Below are positions 35,051 to 42,802 of a stretch of DNA of 64,000 nt, piece by piece (within the stretch, counting starts at the first letter, position 1; each line of letters begins with the position of its first letter). The stretch is from Bacilli bacterium. GTDB lineage: Bacteria > Bacillota_I > Bacilli_A > RF39 > UBA660. Under the pieces are notes generated by a model. The model was not told the DNA's origin, searched no databases, and saw only the letters and a program-made list of their open reading frames with translations. A program made the translations under genes and the position numbers. The stretch lies in NCBI GenBank assembly GCA_017548925.1, contig JAFYYX010000001.1, forward strand, positions 360,852-424,851, written 5' to 3'.

Positions 35051-35875
35051 ATGGAAAAACATTTAGAAGTAGAAAGAAGTATTATTAAAAAATTTAGAAA
35101 AGAAATCTGGTCTAAATTTACTAGGGCTATAAGAGATTATAACCTTATTTCTGATGGAGATAAAATTGCTGTATGTATCTCTGGTGGAAAAGATTCTTTT
35201 TTACTTGCTAAATGTATGCAAGAAATTAAAAAGCATGGAAAAATAGATTTTGATTTAAAATTTATTGTTATGAATCCTGGTTATAAAGAAGAAAATGAAA
35301 AATTAATTAAAGAAAATGCCAAGCTTTTAAATATACCAATTGAAATGTTTAATACAGATATCTTTGATGTTGTATATAATGTTCCATCTAAAGCACCATG
35401 TTATTTATGTGCAAGAATGAGAAGAGGACATTTATATAATAAAGCTAAAGAACTAGGTTGTAATAAAATAGCACTAGGTCATCATTTTGATGACATAATT
35501 GAAACAACTCTTTTATCAATGTTTTATGGAGCAGAAATAAAAACTATGATGCCAAAATTACATAGTGATAATTTCGAAGGAATAGATTTAATTAGACCTA
35601 TGTGCTATGTAAAAGAAAAAGATATTATTGCATGGAAAAATTATAATGAACTAAAATTTTTAAACTGTGCATGTAAATTTACTGAAAGATCACAAATTGA
35701 TGAATCTTTATCTAAAAGAAAAGAAATGAAACGATTAATCGAAGAACTTAGAAAAGAAGAAAAAGAAATAGATCATAACATTTATAAAGCTTTAGAAAAT
35801 GTAAATTTAAATTGTGTACTTGGATATAGAAAAGATGGAGAATATAAGTCTTTTCTAGATGATTATGATAAATAA
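35051..35875 (+). CDS. ttcA: tRNA 2-thiocytidine(32) synthetase TtcA-like PP-loop ATPase
   Basis: PP-loop SGGKDS (CISGGKDSFLLAKC). Cys motifs CYLCARMRRG and CACKFTE consistent with Fe-S-binding TtcA. Confidence 0.7.
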   Translation: MEKHLEVERSIIKKFRKEIWSKFTRAIRDYNLISDGDKIAVCISGGKDSFLLAKCMQEIKKHGKIDFDLKFIVMNPGYKEENEKLIKENAKLLNIPIEMFNTDIFDVVYNVPSKAPCYLCARMRRGHLYNKAKELGCNKIALGHHFDDIIETTLLSMFYGAEIKTMMPKLHSDNFEGIDLIRPMCYVKEKDIIAWKNYNELKFLNCACKFTERSQIDESLSKRKEMKRLIEELRKEEKEIDHNIYKALENVNLNCVLGYRKDGEYKSFLDDYDK

Positions 35876-35905
35876 ACTATCAGTAGAAACTGATAGTTTT
35901 TTTAA
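35874..35905 (+). terminator. rho-independent terminator
   Basis: Stem aactatcag pairs with ctgatagtt, followed by T7. Confidence 0.7.
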
Positions 35906-35977
35906 TACTAAACGAAGAGTTTATTTACTAAATATATTTTTATTTATATAATTGAAAATGTAAGGTAGGGAAAGTAA

Positions 35978-36946
35978 ATGAACTATGACAAAATAGGTGA
36001 GTTTATTGCATCTAAAAGAAAAGAAAAAAATATGACCCAAAGTGAACTTGCTAAAAAGTTAGGTGTAACTGATAAAGCAGTATCTAAGTGGGAAAGGGGA
36101 CTAGGTTGTCCTGATGTATCTATATTAGAAATATTATCCAAAGAATTAGATGTATCAATTCTTGAACTATTAAAGGGAAGAGAAATTGAAAATGAGGTTG
36201 TTAAAGTAACTGAAGCAGATGATTACATAAAAGATACATATAAAACAACAAAAAATAAATATAATGAGGAACTTAAAAAGAAGATCAGTTACATTATTGT
36301 TACCATATCAATTTTTATAATTATTATTATTGGAGTATTCAATTTTAATTCATATAAAAGAGTTACTAAAAAGTATGAAATAAATTTTGAAAGTTTCTAT
36401 AATGATGATACATATAAAGGTAAAAATACAAGTTTTAAATATAAAAAAGAAAAATTAAAAGAATACATAAATATTATTGAGAATAATAAAGGAACTCTAA
36501 CAGATGATGAACAGCAAATTATGCTAAGTACTTTAAAAGGTTTTTATAAATATTATGATGAGTGCTGGATATTTAGTATAAAAGATGGAACAAAGATGTC
36601 ATATCAAGAAGCATTTGTTAAACTAGTTAAGTCATTCTATAAATATAGTTGGCCAAGATTCACAGAAATGTTGAAATTATATAAAAATCTTACAAATAAA
36701 GAAACACCAGATGAATTAATGGTAGAAACTTTAAAGAGAAATAATGCTGAATATGAATTTACAGAAACTTATGATAATTTATTTAGAATACAATTATCTT
36801 TTGAAATAGAAGAGTATATTTATAAAATGGCGTTTGGTAATGTAGAAGATAAGCTGCAAAGTGTTGTTGAACGAAATATTGGTTATTTAACACCGTTATT
36901 AACAATGACTGAAGAAATAATGGAGGCTGCTGGTATAAATGAATAA
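35978..36946 (+). CDS. membrane-anchored XRE-family HTH transcriptional regulator with C-terminal extracytoplasmic domain (copy 1)
   Basis: N-terminal Cro/C1 HTH (MTQSELAKKLGVTDKAVSKWERGLGCPDVSILEILSKEL). Single TM (ISYIIVTISIFIIIIIGVF). About 200-aa C-terminal domain ending in LTMTEEIMEAAGINE. Confidence 0.65.
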   Translation: MNYDKIGEFIASKRKEKNMTQSELAKKLGVTDKAVSKWERGLGCPDVSILEILSKELDVSILELLKGREIENEVVKVTEADDYIKDTYKTTKNKYNEELKKKISYIIVTISIFIIIIIGVFNFNSYKRVTKKYEINFESFYNDDTYKGKNTSFKYKKEKLKEYINIIENNKGTLTDDEQQIMLSTLKGFYKYYDECWIFSIKDGTKMSYQEAFVKLVKSFYKYSWPRFTEMLKLYKNLTNKETPDELMVETLKRNNAEYEFTETYDNLFRIQLSFEIEEYIYKMAFGNVEDKLQSVVERNIGYLTPLLTMTEEIMEAAGINE

Positions 36947-37373
36947 GATATTAAAATATGTAAAATATACTTTATACGTAGTAAGTGTTTGTTTGTTTAT
37001 CACATTTGTTATTAGATATAAATTAAAACTTAGTGGTAGTTTTGATACCCAATTTACTCTTGGCCTTGCATTAATGATTGTTCTTCTACTAGTAACACTA
37101 ACTTTAAATATTATTACAGATGTTAAGAAGAAAAAAATATCTAATCTTAATGGATATAATTTTTTAACTATTATGAATTTACTTACTCTAATATTTATAT
37201 ATGGAAGAACAATCTTTGACAAGAATATTGTCTCAAATGTATTAAGAGGTATCGCATATGATTGGTATAATATCTATGGATATAAATATTGTTTATTCTA
37301 TAGTAACTTTATTTCATTATTATTTGTATTAAATATAATTTACTTCATTGCTAACGCTAAAACACATAAGTAG
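36939..37373 (+). CDS. 4-TM small membrane protein, partner of HTH regulator (copy 1)
   Basis: Start overlaps the upstream stop within ATGAATAA. Four hydrophobic segments. Conserved FDKNIVSN...YGY.Y block shared with copy 2. Confidence 0.5.
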   Translation: MNKILKYVKYTLYVVSVCLFITFVIRYKLKLSGSFDTQFTLGLALMIVLLLVTLTLNIITDVKKKKISNLNGYNFLTIMNLLTLIFIYGRTIFDKNIVSNVLRGIAYDWYNIYGYKYCLFYSNFISLLFVLNIIYFIANAKTHK

Positions 37374-37382
37374 ATTTAAAAA

Positions 37383-37411
37383 TTCTAATAGATTCTATTA
37401 GAGTTTTTTTA
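37383..37411 (+). terminator. rho-independent terminator
   Basis: Stem ctaatag pairs with ctattag, followed by T7. Confidence 0.55.
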
Positions 37412-37484
37412 GGTAAATGAAGAATCGATTTACAATTATATTATTTTATTTGTATAATCGAATTATATAGTAGGAGGATTTTAT

Positions 37485-38441
37485 ATGAACTATGAAAAAA
37501 TAGGTGAGTTCATTGCTAGTAAAAGAAAAGAAAAAGATTTAACGCAAAAAGAACTTGCTAAAAAAATAGGTGTAACTGATAAAGCTGTCTCAAGATGGGA
37601 AAGAGGGCTGGGGTGCCCTGATGTATCTATACTTGAACTTTTATCTAAAGAACTTGATGTATCAATATTAGAACTTTTAAAAGGAAGAAAAATTGAAAAT
37701 GAAGTTATCAAAGTAACTGAAGCAGATGATTATATTAAAGAATCATACAAAGAATCTAAAAATAAATTTAATAAAGAAATTAAAAAAATAGTTAATATTC
37801 TGATAATATTTCTATCATCTTTTTTGGTTTTTATAGCACTATACTTTAATGTTACATCATATCTAAGATTAACTAAAAAACAAGACATGGACTTTACCTA
37901 TGAATATGAAGATTTCAATATAAAATTAGGCCCTGGAACATCATTTTATGATAATAAAGCAAAATTAAAAAAATATATAGATATTATTGAAAACAATCAA
38001 GGAAAATTAACTGATGAAGAGTATACTAGCTTATTAAATTATTTGAAAACTGAGTATGAATTTATATCTAATTCATTTATATTCAAAGTTAATAAACTTA
38101 GATATTATTCATTTAATGATATATTTGTAAAACTTGCAAAAGATTATGATAAATATAATTTTGAACATTTGTATTTTGCTCGAATATATCAAAACTATGT
38201 AGGTGATATTTCTAACACAACATTCTATAGTGGCCTTCGTGGTGTATCAAACGCTGAAAGTGAATTTACTCTCGTGTATAATAGTAATTTCGAAAATTTA
38301 CTTTATTTTAAGATGGAAGATGATACCTTCTTATCACCACTATTTTTATTATTAGATATTGTTTCTAACCATGTATACATGCTTAATCCTATACTTGATA
38401 TGACTGAAGAAATAATGAATGGAGCTGATATCCATGAATAA
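37485..38441 (+). CDS. membrane-anchored XRE-family HTH transcriptional regulator (copy 2, paralogue of 35978..36946)
   Basis: The N-terminal 80 aa are nearly identical to copy 1 (MNYEKIGEFIASKRKEKDLTQKELAKKIGVTDKAVSRWERGLGCPDVSILELLSKELDVSILELLKG). TM, then a diverged C-terminal domain ending in LDMTEEIMNGADIHE. Confidence 0.65.
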   Translation: MNYEKIGEFIASKRKEKDLTQKELAKKIGVTDKAVSRWERGLGCPDVSILELLSKELDVSILELLKGRKIENEVIKVTEADDYIKESYKESKNKFNKEIKKIVNILIIFLSSFLVFIALYFNVTSYLRLTKKQDMDFTYEYEDFNIKLGPGTSFYDNKAKLKKYIDIIENNQGKLTDEEYTSLLNYLKTEYEFISNSFIFKVNKLRYYSFNDIFVKLAKDYDKYNFEHLYFARIYQNYVGDISNTTFYSGLRGVSNAESEFTLVYNSNFENLLYFKMEDDTFLSPLFLLLDIVSNHVYMLNPILDMTEEIMNGADIHE

Positions 38442-38877
38442 AATATTAAATATAATTAAATATGTCTTATTTATAACATCTTTTCTTTTAATTATATATT
38501 TTATTAAAGAATATAATTTAAGAGGTAAAGATGAAATAATTAAATTTACTTTTAGATTTATTACAACAATAACATTATTATGTATTGTATTTATTTTAAA
38601 TATTATAGATTTAATTAAAATTAAAAAAATAAATAAACTAAAATGTTATAATATTTTAACCATAATAGATTTAACATTCATTATTTTTATTTTAATTAGA
38701 ACTTTATTTGATAAAAGTATTGTATCTAACCAACTTAGAACAGAATTTTATGGTTATTATAATAGATATGGGTTCCAGTACTTTATGTTTTATTGTATAT
38801 TCATTATTATCTTACTCATTTTAAACATCGCTTACTTTATAGTTAACACTAAAAGAATTAAACAAAAAAAGCACTAA
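38434..38877 (+). CDS. 4-TM small membrane protein, partner of HTH regulator (copy 2)
   Basis: Same ATGAATAA start/stop overlap as copy 1. Begins MNKILNIIKYV (copy 1 begins MNKILKYVKY) and carries the shared FDKSIVSNQLR block. Confidence 0.5.
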   Translation: MNKILNIIKYVLFITSFLLIIYFIKEYNLRGKDEIIKFTFRFITTITLLCIVFILNIIDLIKIKKINKLKCYNILTIIDLTFIIFILIRTLFDKSIVSNQLRTEFYGYYNRYGFQYFMFYCIFIIILLILNIAYFIVNTKRIKQKKH

Positions 38878-38890
38878 ATAGTGTTTTTTT
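38866..38890 (+). terminator. rho-independent terminator (G-U wobble containing)
   Basis: Stem aagcact pairs with agtgttt, followed by T8. Confidence 0.45.
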
Positions 38891-38950
38891 TTATGTAAAA
38901 TACGTATATCTATGATATAGTATTAATGGAATATAGAAAGGTATCAATGT

Positions 38951-40843
38951 ATGAAGAAGTTTTTAATATCTATAAGCATTTTTATAATTACATTATTTAT
39001 ATCTATTTCATACACTCATGCCTTAACTGAAGTTGGTGATTTAGCTACTTTAACAGATAGTTTATCACAAGGTGGAGAATTACTGTTAACAAGTGATATC
39101 ACTGCAAACGCAGATTTAAATGTTACAAGTGATGTAACACTTAATCTAAATGGTCATAAACTTAAAATGGGTAGTACAGTATTATATGTAAAAAGTAATA
39201 TGACTATTTATGATGGCACAGAAAATAAAAATGGTTCAATTGAAGGAACAGCTGATTTTGTAATTACTGTTGGTACATCTACTTTAAGTGGTAACTTAAC
39301 AATTGACTCTGGCACTATAAATTGTAAAGGTAAATATGGTATTAAAATTGTACCTAATAGTTCTTTAGTTATAAATGATGGAACAGTAGTTGGTAAACGT
39401 TATCTTATTTATAATGATGGTAACTTTGAATTAAATGGTGGTTTAATTCACGCAAAAACTGGTCTAACAATTCAAAATAGAGCAGGTTCATTATTTACTA
39501 TGAATGGTGGAACTGTAACTACTGATGTTGATTATCAAGCAGTAAATCTTCATGGAAACTGTAAAGCTATAATAAATGGTGGAGAGATTCATGCTCATAA
39601 AGAAGGAACTGATTATCAAGGCAACGGTATAACTCTTTACAAGAATACCGAACTTATCGTAAATGGTGGCTTAATATCAACTTATGGTAATGCTATTATG
39701 GGTAATGGTTCGATTTCCGGTACTAGTGACGGATCTAATGCCAAAATAACTATTACAGGTGGAACTATAATATCATCTAATGGAGCTGCTGTTTATAATC
39801 CACAATATAATGGTGAAACACTAATAACAGGTGGAACTTTAACTGGTACATCAGCTATTGAAGTAAGATCAGGTAAAGTTACTATTGAAGGTGGAACCTT
39901 TAATGGAACTTTTCCATATGTTGTAACCGATTTTGCTAATGGTACTTCAACTGATGGAGCTGCTGTTGCTATAGCTCAGCATGATACAAAAAAACCAATT
40001 GATTTAACTATCAAAGGTGGAAACTTTAATGCTGAAGTTCCAATAAGTTTTACTAATCCACTTAATAATGAAGAAGAATATATTAATCAAATTAACATTA
40101 ATGTTTTTGGTGGAAACTTTAGAACAACAGGAACTACTAATGTTATATCTTTAGATGATAGAGCTATTTTAGCAGGTGGTTCATATAATACTGATGTTTC
40201 TGATTTAGTAATTGATGGCTATGGAGTTAAAGAAGAAAGTGGTATTTATAGTGTCCTTAAACTATATAATATAAACATAGATAAAGATTCTAATGAAGAT
40301 CTTTCAGTAAATGCAAATAAATCGTTTAAAGGTGAACTTATTAAAGTTACTCCAAAAGAAAAATGGGGCTTTGAATCTAAAGTTATATTAAATGATGGAA
40401 CTAAAGATTATGAAATAAATAATAATGAATTTATTATGCCTGAAAATAATGTTACTTTAAAAGTATCATATAGTGTTAGATATAAAATAATATCAGGTGA
40501 TAATCAAATTTATAATAATAGTGATATAACTATAACAACTAATGGAAGCATAGATAAATTAGAAAATATTAAAATTAATGGTGATAGTGTAGATAAAGAT
40601 AGTGTGATTATTGAAAATGGTAGTACTATTTTAACTATTAAAAATGATTACTTAAAATCACTATCTAGCGGAGTATATAATATAACATTTACTTATACAG
40701 ATGGTGATGTTTCAACTAATTTATTGGTTAATAAGGAAACTCCTAAAAATCCAGAAACATTTGATAATATCATCACATATTTTATAGTTTTAGTTTTAAG
40801 TTTATTTTCAACTAGTGTAATGATATATAAAAAGAATAATTAA
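38951..40843 (+). CDS. surface-anchored parallel beta-helix repeat protein (putative adhesin)
   Basis: Signal peptide. About 12 imperfect ~22-aa repeats of the form (I/L)xGGT(I/V)x(S/T)... (for example NGGTVTTDV, NGGEIHAHKEG, TGGTIISSNGAA, EGGTFNGTFP). Ig-like C-terminal region. C-terminal TM (IITYFIVLVLSLFSTSVMIY) with a KKNN tail. Confidence 0.6.
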   Translation: MKKFLISISIFIITLFISISYTHALTEVGDLATLTDSLSQGGELLLTSDITANADLNVTSDVTLNLNGHKLKMGSTVLYVKSNMTIYDGTENKNGSIEGTADFVITVGTSTLSGNLTIDSGTINCKGKYGIKIVPNSSLVINDGTVVGKRYLIYNDGNFELNGGLIHAKTGLTIQNRAGSLFTMNGGTVTTDVDYQAVNLHGNCKAIINGGEIHAHKEGTDYQGNGITLYKNTELIVNGGLISTYGNAIMGNGSISGTSDGSNAKITITGGTIISSNGAAVYNPQYNGETLITGGTLTGTSAIEVRSGKVTIEGGTFNGTFPYVVTDFANGTSTDGAAVAIAQHDTKKPIDLTIKGGNFNAEVPISFTNPLNNEEEYINQININVFGGNFRTTGTTNVISLDDRAILAGGSYNTDVSDLVIDGYGVKEESGIYSVLKLYNINIDKDSNEDLSVNANKSFKGELIKVTPKEKWGFESKVILNDGTKDYEINNNEFIMPENNVTLKVSYSVRYKIISGDNQIYNNSDITITTNGSIDKLENIKINGDSVDKDSVIIENGSTILTIKNDYLKSLSSGVYNITFTYTDGDVSTNLLVNKETPKNPETFDNIITYFIVLVLSLFSTSVMIYKKNN

Positions 40844-40871
40844 AAGTACAGTCTTAAACTGTACTTTTTTA
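40842..40871 (+). terminator. rho-independent terminator
   Basis: Stem aaagtacag pairs with ctgtacttt, followed by T6. Confidence 0.7.
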
Positions 40872-40897: not shown

Positions 40898-42802
40898 ATG
40901 AACTATGAAAATATATATCGAAGGCAAAAAGTATTTCTAATAATAACTATTATTTTATTTATATCTATAATTATAAAAATATTTTATATTGAATACATTG
41001 ATTATAAAAAGATAAATAAACTTGCTAATGACTTATGGAATAGAGAACTTCCTATAACAGCTGATAGAGGATTAATACTAGATAGAAATGGTAAAGTTTT
41101 AGCAAGTAATATAACAACAACATCTTTAGTAGTTGTTCCAAAACAAATAAAAGATAAAAAGTATGCAGCTGAAGAAATATCTAAGATACTAAATACTACT
41201 TATAAAAATATATATGGTCACATTACTAAAAATACATCAATAGAAAGAATTCATCCTGAAGGAAGAAGACTTTCTTATGAAATAGCTGATAAAATAAATG
41301 CTTTAAATATAGACGGGGTATATCTTTTAAAAGAAGGTAAAAGATATTATCCATATGGTAATGTCTTATCACATGTTTTAGGTTATGTTGGAATTGATAA
41401 TCAAGGTTTATCAGGTATTGAATCTATGTATGAAAAATATTTAAAAGGAACCGATGGCTCCATTAAATATTTATCAGATGGAAAAGGCCAAAGACTTAAT
41501 TTAAGCGAAAGTTATAATGAACCAGAAAGTGGTATGAACGTTCTTTTAACTATTGATTTAGATTTACAACTTGCTATTGAAAATGAACTAGATATAGCTA
41601 TGAGTAAATATAATCCAGAAAATGTTTTAATACTTGCAATGAATCCAACATCTGGAGAAATTTTGGGTATGGCATCAAGACCTTCTTTTGATAGCAACTA
41701 TTATAAAAATTATAGCACTGAAACTATAAATAGAAATTTACCTATTTGGAAAACGTATGAACCAGGATCAACTTTTAAGATAATTACTTATGCTGCTGCA
41801 ATAGAAGAAAAAGTAGTAAACATATTTGAAGATACTTATTATGATAGTGGATCAATAAAAGTTTCTGGTTCAACACTACACTGCTGGAAACATGAAGGTC
41901 ATGGACTTCAAACATATTTAGAAGTAATTCAAAATTCATGTAACCCAGGTTTTGTTACCCTCGGGTTAAAACTAGGTAAAGAAAAATTAATGAAATATAT
42001 TCATAATTTTGGTTTTGGCAAAAAAACTGGTATTGATTTAAATGGTGAAGCCAAAGGTATTTTGTTTAAAGAAGAACAAATGAAAGAATTAGAACTTGCA
42101 ACAACAGCATTTGGTCAAGGTATATCTGTTACTCCAATTCAGCAGGTAAAAGCTGTTAGTGCAGCTATTAATGGTGGTAACTTATATACTCCTTATATAG
42201 TAAAAGGTGTTGAAGACTCTAGTACTCATGAATTTATTTATGAAAATAAAAAGCACTTAGAGAAAAAAGTAATAAGTGAAGAAACAAGTAAACTAGTTAG
42301 ATATGCACTTGAAACTGTTGTTGCAAAGGGAACTGGTCATAATGCATATTTAGAAGGCTATAAAATAGGTGGTAAAACTGGAACAGCTCAAAAGGTAGAT
42401 AATGGTGCATACATGCAAGGAAACTATATACTATCTTTTATAGGTTTTTTACCAGCAGATGATCCTAAACTTGTTTTATATGTTGCAATTGATCATCCAC
42501 ATAATGTTACACAGTATGGTGGTACAGTTGCAGCACCAATTGCTAAAAATATATTTAAAAGTGCTGTAAGTATTTTAAATATTAAAAAAAGTAAAGATGT
42601 TATTCCAAAAGAATATACATGGCTTGATGAAAAATATTATTTAGTGCCAGATGTAACTAACCAAGATGTTAAAGAAGCAAAAAAATTACTTAAAAATTTT
42701 AAAGTAAAATATATTGGAAAAGGAAATACTGTTATAAAACAAACACCAAAAGCAAATACTATGACTAAAGAGTTAGGTGATGTAGTACTTTACCTTAATT
42801 AA
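40898..42802 (+). CDS. class B penicillin-binding protein with C-terminal PASTA domain (SpoVD/PBP2B-like)
   Basis: N-terminal TM, dimerisation domain, transpeptidase motifs STFK, SCN and KTGT (GGKTGTAQ), and a single C-terminal PASTA. Confidence 0.8.
   Translation: MNYENIYRRQKVFLIITIILFISIIIKIFYIEYIDYKKINKLANDLWNRELPITADRGLILDRNGKVLASNITTTSLVVVPKQIKDKKYAAEEISKILNTTYKNIYGHITKNTSIERIHPEGRRLSYEIADKINALNIDGVYLLKEGKRYYPYGNVLSHVLGYVGIDNQGLSGIESMYEKYLKGTDGSIKYLSDGKGQRLNLSESYNEPESGMNVLLTIDLDLQLAIENELDIAMSKYNPENVLILAMNPTSGEILGMASRPSFDSNYYKNYSTETINRNLPIWKTYEPGSTFKIITYAAAIEEKVVNIFEDTYYDSGSIKVSGSTLHCWKHEGHGLQTYLEVIQNSCNPGFVTLGLKLGKEKLMKYIHNFGFGKKTGIDLNGEAKGILFKEEQMKELELATTAFGQGISVTPIQQVKAVSAAINGGNLYTPYIVKGVEDSSTHEFIYENKKHLEKKVISEETSKLVRYALETVVAKGTGHNAYLEGYKIGGKTGTAQKVDNGAYMQGNYILSFIGFLPADDPKLVLYVAIDHPHNVTQYGGTVAAPIAKNIFKSAVSILNIKKSKDVIPKEYTWLDEKYYLVPDVTNQDVKEAKKLLKNFKVKYIGKGNTVIKQTPKANTMTKELGDVVLYLN

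Follow-up and report, generated by a model that had tools for sequence, protein, structure and literature searches.

To our knowledge, most of the characterised transcription factors that are tethered to the membrane and need a co-encoded partner come from enteric Proteobacteria, in which they govern virulence according to bile and lipids. In enteric bacteria, the co-component systems VtrA/VtrC, ToxR/ToxS, TcpP/TcpH, and PsaE/PsaF are cassettes of two genes that evolve fast and have overlapping reading frames (Kinch et al. 2022, PMC9214523). Transmembrane transcription regulators (TTRs) are defined by a DNA-binding domain and at least one transmembrane (TM) region; the helix-turn-helix (HTH) is their commonest output domain, and approximately 57% of them have no recognisable sensor domain (PMC10269533). 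BcrR of Enterococcus faecalis is a one-component bacitracin sensor (cited in PMC10269533; studied in PMC3968067). In this study, we analysed a window of DNA from a Bacilli bacterium (the whole 64-kb stretch, 25% GC) and a tandem pair of two-gene cassettes within it, each of which encodes a regulator with a Cro/cI-type (XRE) HTH and, in an overlapping frame, a small membrane protein, here called the partner. On balance, we believe that each cassette encodes a transmembrane transcription regulator and, co-translated with it, a membrane partner, and that the two would act as one co-component-like signalling unit.

Cassette organisation, pairing and relatives

A reading made earlier from the letters of this stretch (the sequence-only reading) had described a two-gene cassette in tandem duplicate with paralogous regulators and paralogous partners, and the open reading frames (ORFs), the overlaps, and the identities all bore this out (Table 1). 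The two regulators, reg1 and reg2, were 50% identical overall (E 5e-98), and the two partners, par1 and par2, were 47% identical (E 1e-22). The regulator identity was 87% over amino acids (aa) 1-90, 41% in the TM region, 34% over aa 128-305, and 65% over the last 17 aa, in keeping with the near-identical HTH N-termini and diverged C-terminal halves described before. At both junctions, the partner ATG lies 8 nt inside the regulator gene, in an overlap that is identical in the two cassettes (ATGAATAA), again as first described, and GGAGG stands 13 nt 5' of the par1 ATG, within reg1. A longer ORF is possible for par2 from an alternative upstream ATG at 38419; the start is likely 38434, which is favoured by homology with par1 and with ten other partners beginning MNK. 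The pairwise alignment that had been proposed for dating the duplication gave a synonymous divergence (dS) between the window paralogues of approximately 0.8-1.2, which is near saturation, and the duplication is therefore old. No third copy of the cassette was found in the window by tblastn. Public records give these proteins no names other than "helix-turn-helix transcriptional regulator" and "hypothetical protein". The original observation was accurate and well beyond chance.

Table 1. Positions of the cassette genes, their flanking signals, and the gene that follows them (positions are those of the window; aa, amino acids)
Feature	Position	Strand	Details
Terminator-like hairpin and T-run ending the upstream ttcA-like gene	35874-35899	+	11 pairs; -12.7 kcal/mol, z -4.9; 5' boundary of cassette 1
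Conserved box, cassette 1	35909-35928	+	TAAACGAAGAGTTTATTTAC; core TAAAC-N5-GTTTA (35909-35923) abuts -35; candidate operator
Promoter-like site, cassette 1	35924-35952	+	TTTACT-17 nt-TATAAT; 10/12 matches
reg1	35978-36946	+	322 aa; ORF position as in the sequence-only reading
par1	36939-37373	+	144 aa; start overlaps reg1 stop in ATGAATAA; predicted four-TM partner
Terminator-like hairpin and U-run 3' of par1	37378-37408	+	-11.4 kcal/mol, z -4.5
Conserved box, cassette 2	37414-37433	+	TAAATGAAGAATCGATTTAC; with preceding G, perfect inverted repeat GTAAAT-N9-ATTTAC (37413-37433)
Promoter-like site, cassette 2	37429-37458	+	TTTACA-18 nt-TATAAT; 11/12 matches, best in region
reg2	37485-38441	+	318 aa; paralogue of reg1, same architecture
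par2	38434-38877	+	147 aa; start overlaps reg2 stop in ATGAATAA; predicted four-TM partner
Terminator-like hairpin and U-run 3' of par2	38864-38891	+	-9.7 kcal/mol, z -3.2; equivalent hairpin at locus L001
Predicted beta-helix surface protein gene	38951-40843		630 aa; N-terminal signal-like segment, C-terminal hydrophobic anchor

The pairing was conserved in other genomes. All 12 cassettes that we collected from 8 loci had the regulator followed by a small polytopic partner with an 8-nt overlap, the sequence of which was ATGAATAA in 11 cassettes and ATGTATAA in one. With a partner in every cassette and a TM helix in every regulator of the family, the earlier interpretation as sensor plus partner has held up. 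Copy number in related genomes, which had been put forward for comparison, was one, two, or three cassettes. At L001-L007 (approximately 71-77% identical orthologues), there are two cassettes (322 + 143 aa and 310 + 152 aa) with a ttcA-like gene upstream and a penicillin-binding protein (PBP) gene downstream. The 454-kb scaffold L009/L011 carries three cassettes in the same slot (317 + 144, 313 + 140, and 312 + 154 aa), and L013, from a GTDB genome labelled "uncultured Tenericutes", carries two with the same synteny. The second cassette of the window is not orthologous to the second cassette of L001, the ectodomains being only approximately 20-25% identical, so that the type of sensor in the slot differs from genome to genome. 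In a more distant lineage (L093/L094), a single cassette (301 aa with a 232-aa six-TM partner) lies after the ttcA-like gene. It is directly followed (L093 8802-12450, and L094) by a two-component system, made up of an OmpR-type response regulator and a histidine kinase, and an ABC transporter (ABC_tran and ABC2_membrane), a layout that recalls antimicrobial-peptide or bacitracin response modules.

Over the 12 cassettes, the mean pairwise identity was 77% in the HTH region, 25% in the ectodomain, and 32% in the partner. The identities of ectodomain and partner were correlated (Spearman rho 0.50, p 2e-5), and those of HTH and ectodomain were not (rho -0.04). Sensor halves and partners that diverge fast together under a stable HTH would fit diversified inputs into a common output. 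Between orthologues, the ratio of nonsynonymous to synonymous divergence (dN/dS) was 0.07-0.22 in the regulator segments and 0.20 in the partner; both genes are under purifying selection and functional.

Searches with the ectodomain returned 3 proteins from a word-index search of 5.8 billion proteins and 11 from an exhaustive hidden Markov model search of 1.84 billion cluster representatives. All 11 were proteins of approximately 310-324 aa with the domain starting at residue ~92-102, or fragments of such proteins. The partner family, no wider than that of the ectodomain, comprised 10 clusters in the first search and 24 by profile search, all of them lacking a Pfam domain and named, if at all, "hypothetical protein". 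The cassettes rest on two orphan protein families. The cassette family is previously undescribed and very narrow, and it occurs in uncultured gut and rumen Bacilli. In one metagenomic member, P0017 (308 aa), the HTH, the TM helix, and the first half of the ectodomain are normal; from residue ~253 its sequence is unrelated to the family, rich in Cys, His, and Asp, and without a Pfam match, which may reflect a chimera, a frameshift, or a swapped domain.

The HTH subtype itself is widespread. Its motifs, DKAVS[KR]WE and GCPD[VI]SILE, had at least 600 matching stretches in GTDB species genomes, and of 81 regulators parsed at the 80 best loci, approximately 75 had one to six hydrophobic segments starting near residue 93-110. 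The cassette family is thus a minor branch of a large superfamily of XRE proteins that are tethered to the membrane in Firmicutes. Within that superfamily, a partner starting with MNK was found only in close relatives (L013, L014, and L016). Other arrangements of the same subtype were also seen. In Clostridia (L018 6001-7709, L061 6001-7581, L024, and L075), short membrane-tethered XRE proteins of approximately 130-200 aa, consisting of an HTH and one TM helix, precede polytopic proteins with 7-10 predicted TM segments, which in L018 and L061 match Acyl_transf_3 (Pfam E ~1e-20); this is another recurrent pairing of a regulator with a membrane partner. In genomes labelled 'Tenericutes', the subtype is fused to a BNR/sortilin-like external domain in a 595-aa protein (L086 6001-7788), or after the regulator comes a 370-aa partner that has TM helices at its N-terminus and matches BNR weakly (L033 6001-8132; a similar partner occurs in L062). 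The sensor module thus seems to be carried by the regulator chain in some cases and by a chain of its own in others.

Regulator, partner and promoter architecture

HTH_3 at aa 10-64 was the only domain recognised in the regulators by Pfam and NCBIfam, and the C-terminal ~200 residues had no match in either collection. A hydropathy scan found a single hydrophobic segment per regulator at aa ~99-127. In reg1, the HTH is followed by a conserved juxtamembrane helix (aa ~77-100), the TM helix (~103-125), the helical ectodomain (128-317), and the tail MTEEIMEAAGINE. The AlphaFold2 model of reg1, which was made from a 10-sequence family alignment and had a mean predicted local distance difference test score (pLDDT) of 81, shows an HTH domain of five helices, a short hinge of low confidence at aa 73-76, a long helix at aa 77-130 that spans the TM segment, and an all-helical C-terminal domain. 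The HTH was 41% identical to the N-terminal domain of P22 c2, with a root-mean-square deviation of 0.8 A. Residues V30, T31, D32, K33, A34, S36, W38, and E39, in and around the recognition helix, were invariant in the family alignment, and the juxtamembrane segment at aa 66-90 was strongly conserved.

Because the fold search with the full-length model was dominated by HTH matches, the ectodomain was modelled separately. Alone, it gave a helical bundle with only two short strands (pLDDT 85, predicted template modelling score 0.82), which can be described from the model as a seven-helix bundle of approximately 195 aa. The structure prediction suggested for this domain has thus yielded a confident bundle without a known fold relative: the best Foldseek match in the PDB had E 0.23 and a TM-score of 0.36, none being specific, and a sequence-profile search of the PDB gave nothing below E 0.01. 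Since a TM helix follows the HTH in every family member, and a DNA-binding HTH must be cytoplasmic, the C-terminal domain is predicted to lie outside the cell, in agreement with the extracytoplasmic position first assigned to it.

The C-terminal tail that had been noted in both regulators is real, and it is kept family-wide in the form T/S-x-E/D-I/L-M/L-K/E-A/G-A/G-G/D-I-N/H-E. In the model, it is the end of the last bundle helix. At the nucleotide level, the last three regulator codons are fixed by the partner ATG-AAT-AAR, and the Gly, Ala, and Glu codons before them furnish the purine-rich Shine-Dalgarno sequence of the partner, which in cassette 1 is the GGAGG mentioned above. Orthologue dS was 0.22 in the tail and 0.85 in the remaining ectodomain. 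The conservation of the tail is explained at least partly by the embedded Shine-Dalgarno sequence and start codon; because the drop in dS is consistent with nucleotide-level constraint, the tail alone is no evidence for a protein-interaction motif, which it may be in addition.

In the hydropathy scan, each window partner had four hydrophobic segments that cover nearly the whole of its 144-147 aa, and neither par1 nor par2 matched Pfam, NCBIfam, PADLOC, or PHROGs. Over the 12 partners, the N-terminus, loop 2, and the C-terminus were net positive, and loops 1 and 3 were near neutral. From these charges, the positive-inside rule predicts a topology with both termini inside, which would place loop 3 outside, on the same side as the helical bundle of the regulator. 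Loop 3 is the longest and best-conserved loop of the partner and carries R-x-L-F/Y-D-x-x-I-x-x-N.

Each cassette has its own promoter-like boxes and its own terminator, as the sequence-only reading had stated (Table 1). The two promoter-like sites were the two best plus-strand matches in the region; the total number of matches was not in excess of chance at 25% GC, and both sites are credible because they are conserved in nine related cassette promoters. In the alignment of these nine, the -35 and -10 hexamers were invariant, and the bases just 5' of the -35 were conserved whereas the spacer between the hexamers was not. The upstream layout common to the cassettes of the close clade consists of the preceding gene's terminator hairpin and T-run, the box, the -35 (TTTACA or TTTACT), 17-18 non-conserved bases, TATAAT, and a strong ribosome-binding site (RBS); in L001, L009, and L013, a hairpin and then a T-run likewise precede the box of the next cassette. 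Each cassette lies between terminator-like hairpins and is therefore probably transcribed as a unit of its own. A consensus terminator scan missed both cassette terminators, the stems of which have fewer than three G-C pairs, and folding shows stable hairpins with U-runs at these places; the consensus scan under-calls terminators in this AT-rich genome.

The search for operator palindromes, another of the checks proposed, found an inverted-repeat box 5' of both cassettes: TAAAC-GAAGA-GTTTA in cassette 1, and (G)TAAAT-GAAGAATCG-ATTTAC, a perfect 6+6 inverted repeat, in cassette 2. In 13 cassette promoters, which came from 8 loci, an equivalent box occupied this position, and the shared pattern is TnnAC-N5-GTnnA (15 bp), abutting the -35 hexamer. 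Distant members have inverted repeats of their own in the same place (CTACT-AAA-AGTAG in L093, ACTCT-ACGG-AGAGT in L016, and CTACT-TTT-AGTCG in L008). The centre of the box lies approximately 42-44 nt 5' of the transcription start as inferred from the position of the -10. Proteins of the cI type activate transcription from that position, for example at PRM, and binding there can also occlude the -35. A conserved inverted repeat that abuts the -35 of each cassette's own promoter at the activating position of cI-type proteins suggests autoregulation, positive or negative, through this candidate operator. Because the recognition helix is invariant across the family, the paralogues probably recognise the same kind of site.

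Proposed mechanism and alternative explanations

The mechanism that we propose starts from what was observed, namely the architecture, the predicted topology, the conserved pairing, the co-divergence of sensor and partner, the purifying selection, and the promoter footprint. The Cro/cI-type HTH would lie in the cytoplasm, the juxtamembrane helix and the single TM helix would tether the regulator, and the helical bundle would face outward. The start codon and RBS of the partner, placed inside the last codons of the regulator, would couple the translation of the two proteins. We infer that the bundle and the partner interact physically as a cognate complex, that this complex senses an extracytoplasmic or membrane cue, and that the cue alters the binding of the HTH dimer at the 15-bp repeat next to its own -35. 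Such binding could either activate in a class II-like manner or occlude the promoter, and the regulators may have further targets. With a recognition helix that does not vary, the paralogues probably share operators and cross-regulate, and the duplicated and diverged halves of sensor and partner would bring several inputs into one output.

Several points weigh against this reading. Linkage alone predicts correlated divergence of adjacent genes, and all family members come from uncultured organisms. The outer loops of the partner are only short; it therefore cannot be a ligand-binding barrel like VtrC or ToxS, and its role could be that of a stabiliser or an inhibitor, or could be unrelated to sensing. 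No further exact matches to the box were found in the window beyond the two cassette promoters. When a metagenome collection was scanned, 45 of 47 exact matches were chance occurrences in unrelated DNA and 2 were upstream of regulators of this family, so that no extra credible targets emerged. The box is also low in information content, its left half varies by cassette type despite the invariant recognition helix, and it might be an UP-like promoter element or an extended -35 element instead of an operator.

The best-surviving alternative, which we regard as unlikely, is a switch by regulated proteolysis of the TcpP/TcpH or anti-sigma kind. The membrane form would be inactive or no more than a store, a signal would bring about cleavage of the ectodomain and then of the TM helix, and the soluble HTH would thereby be freed to act on DNA; before the signal, the partner would shield the regulator from proteases. 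The architecture suits such a switch, the regulator being a type II protein that crosses the membrane once, has its effector domain in the cytoplasm, and is encoded together with a membrane partner, as do the low-confidence hinge and the strongly conserved juxtamembrane segment of the regulator. TcpH is reported to protect TcpP from proteolysis (PMC11323476), which also counts in its favour. However, no protease gene was linked at any examined locus, no mark of a cleavage site was seen in the sequence, and XRE-type membrane regulators such as BcrR, which is listed as a TTR (PMC10269533), act on DNA while membrane-bound. Regulated proteolysis is in any case compatible with the co-component-like unit that we favour.

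Still less probable, in our opinion, is a module of addiction, defence, or immunity, in which the four-TM protein would be either a toxin active at the membrane or an immunity protein, the XRE protein its antitoxin or repressor, and conflict with phages or bacteriocins the force behind the variable copy number and the rapid divergence. The order of the genes (HTH gene first), the 8-nt overlap, and the palindromic promoter box match the organisation of type II toxin-antitoxin operons, which are autoregulated, the copy number varies from one to three, the outward-facing parts are hypervariable, and the HTH has weak matches to antitoxin HTH models such as PezA, MqsA, and HipB. On the other hand, the generic HTH alone matches; the partner and the ectodomain had no match in PADLOC, PHROGs, Pfam, or NCBIfam, and no recognisable toxin family stands beside the HTH gene. 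The cassettes are inherited vertically in one slot by ttcA across lineages with dS of approximately 0.8 or more, without mobile-element genes, and we know of no design in which an antitoxin is anchored in the membrane and carries a 195-aa external domain. These absent toxin and defence matches and the vertical inheritance are the reasons for which we disfavour it. A RodZ-like morphogenetic scaffold, in which the HTH would bind a cytoskeletal or divisome protein and the cassettes would serve cell-wall synthesis, as their position upstream of the PBP-mraY-ftsW-murG genes might suggest, is highly improbable because the HTH is of the repressor type and the cell-wall neighbourhood is not kept in the distant lineage L093/L094; neither an HTH_25-type HTH nor DUF4115 appeared in the Pfam output at E up to 1.

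Two suggestions of the sequence-only reading were not upheld. The anti-sigma or RsgI-like logic was rejected, since the N-terminus is a Cro/cI HTH and not an anti-sigma domain and there is no sigma-factor gene among the neighbours, which at related loci are ABC transporter genes, a VCA0040-like gene, the ttcA-like gene, PBP, and mraY. The large predicted beta-helix surface protein encoded after cassette 2, proposed as the target of the regulators, was also rejected, because its gene is absent from every related locus and the conserved box was not found upstream of it. This protein had no significant match in Pfam, NCBIfam, or PHROGs, and its gene ends with a terminator-like hairpin of its own (40842-40868). 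Only in this genome does it stand between cassette 2 and the PBP gene; in L001, L002, L005, L009/L011, and L013, the PBP gene begins approximately 35-50 nt after the last partner gene. The beta-helix gene is best seen as a lineage-specific insertion. The PBP gene itself starts with MNYENI (40898-40915; MNYESI and MNYETI in orthologues), close to the MNYDKI (35978-35995) and MNYEKI (37485-37502) of the regulators; this likeness could be a coincidence or a trace of duplication or recombination junctions.

If the proposed unit is real, two orphan families, the sensor bundle and the four-TM partner, neither of which has a Pfam model or a structural relative, would receive names. The conserved box offers a concrete handle for a regulon search, and because genomes carry between one and three cassettes whose sensor types are swapped, nature has already set up a specificity experiment. 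In practice, the use of the system is limited by hosts that are all uncultured and by a family confined to a few lineages.

Comparison with known systems

The regulators come under the definition of TTRs, with an HTH_3 domain and one hydrophobic segment, and like most TTRs they have no recognisable sensor domain. It should be kept in mind that TTR is an architectural category and not a homologous family, and that the survey leaves out partner genes and tandem cassette arrays (PMC10269533). Among TTRs, BcrR was compared by architecture. Like the cassette regulators, it is a Firmicute protein with an XRE-type HTH fused to membrane helices, and it acts on DNA from the membrane. BcrR binds inverted repeats in its target promoter. 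In contrast to the cassettes, it has four TM helices in one chain, no large ectodomain, and no partner, whereas here one TM helix and a 195-aa ectodomain are combined with four TM helices in a separate protein. Many relatives that share the HTH subtype have 3-6 TM helices, as BcrR-like sensors would; a comparison with BcrR through plasmid records gave generic HTH matches only.

The HTH domain and the candidate operator abutting the -35 resemble those of the P22 c2, 434, and lambda cI repressors. Those proteins are soluble and have C-terminal domains for dimerisation or autocleavage, whereas the cassette regulators have a membrane anchor and an external bundle in their place. HigX of Caulobacter was also considered as a comparator and rejected, being a LytTR protein with N-terminal TM helices.

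The cassettes also resemble VtrA/VtrC and ToxR/ToxS in design. In both cases, the DNA-binding domain lies at the N-terminus of the regulator, in the cytoplasm, and a single TM helix joins it to an external domain; a membrane partner is encoded immediately downstream, often in an overlapping frame in the enteric systems; the external parts evolve fast; and the bacteria are gut-associated. In the enteric superfamily, the external domain of the regulator and the partner form an obligate heterodimer (PMC9214523). The parts themselves differ. The DNA-binding domain here is a Cro/cI HTH, without a Trans_reg_C match in Pfam, whereas theirs is an OmpR/ToxR winged helix. The modelled ectodomain is all-helical, and theirs is an alpha-beta sandwich. 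The partner is predicted to have four (or six) TM helices and short loops, in contrast to their lipocalin-like barrel with a single TM helix or signal peptide. The cassettes belong to a Gram-positive lineage of low GC, and no homology was detectable in any part. The features that define the VtrA/VtrC-ToxR/ToxS superfamily are missing from the DNA-binding domain, from the fold of the ectodomain, and from the architecture of the partner; the cassettes stand outside it, and what they have in common with it is logic and not descent. It is possible, and we put this forward only tentatively, that the cassettes are an independently evolved Gram-positive counterpart of the enteric co-component sensors, subject to birth and death in one fixed slot, with each cassette bringing a different surface or membrane cue to a shared operator code. 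If so, the same layout would have been assembled from entirely different parts in small-genome gut and rumen Bacilli, and this signalling design would have arisen more than once.

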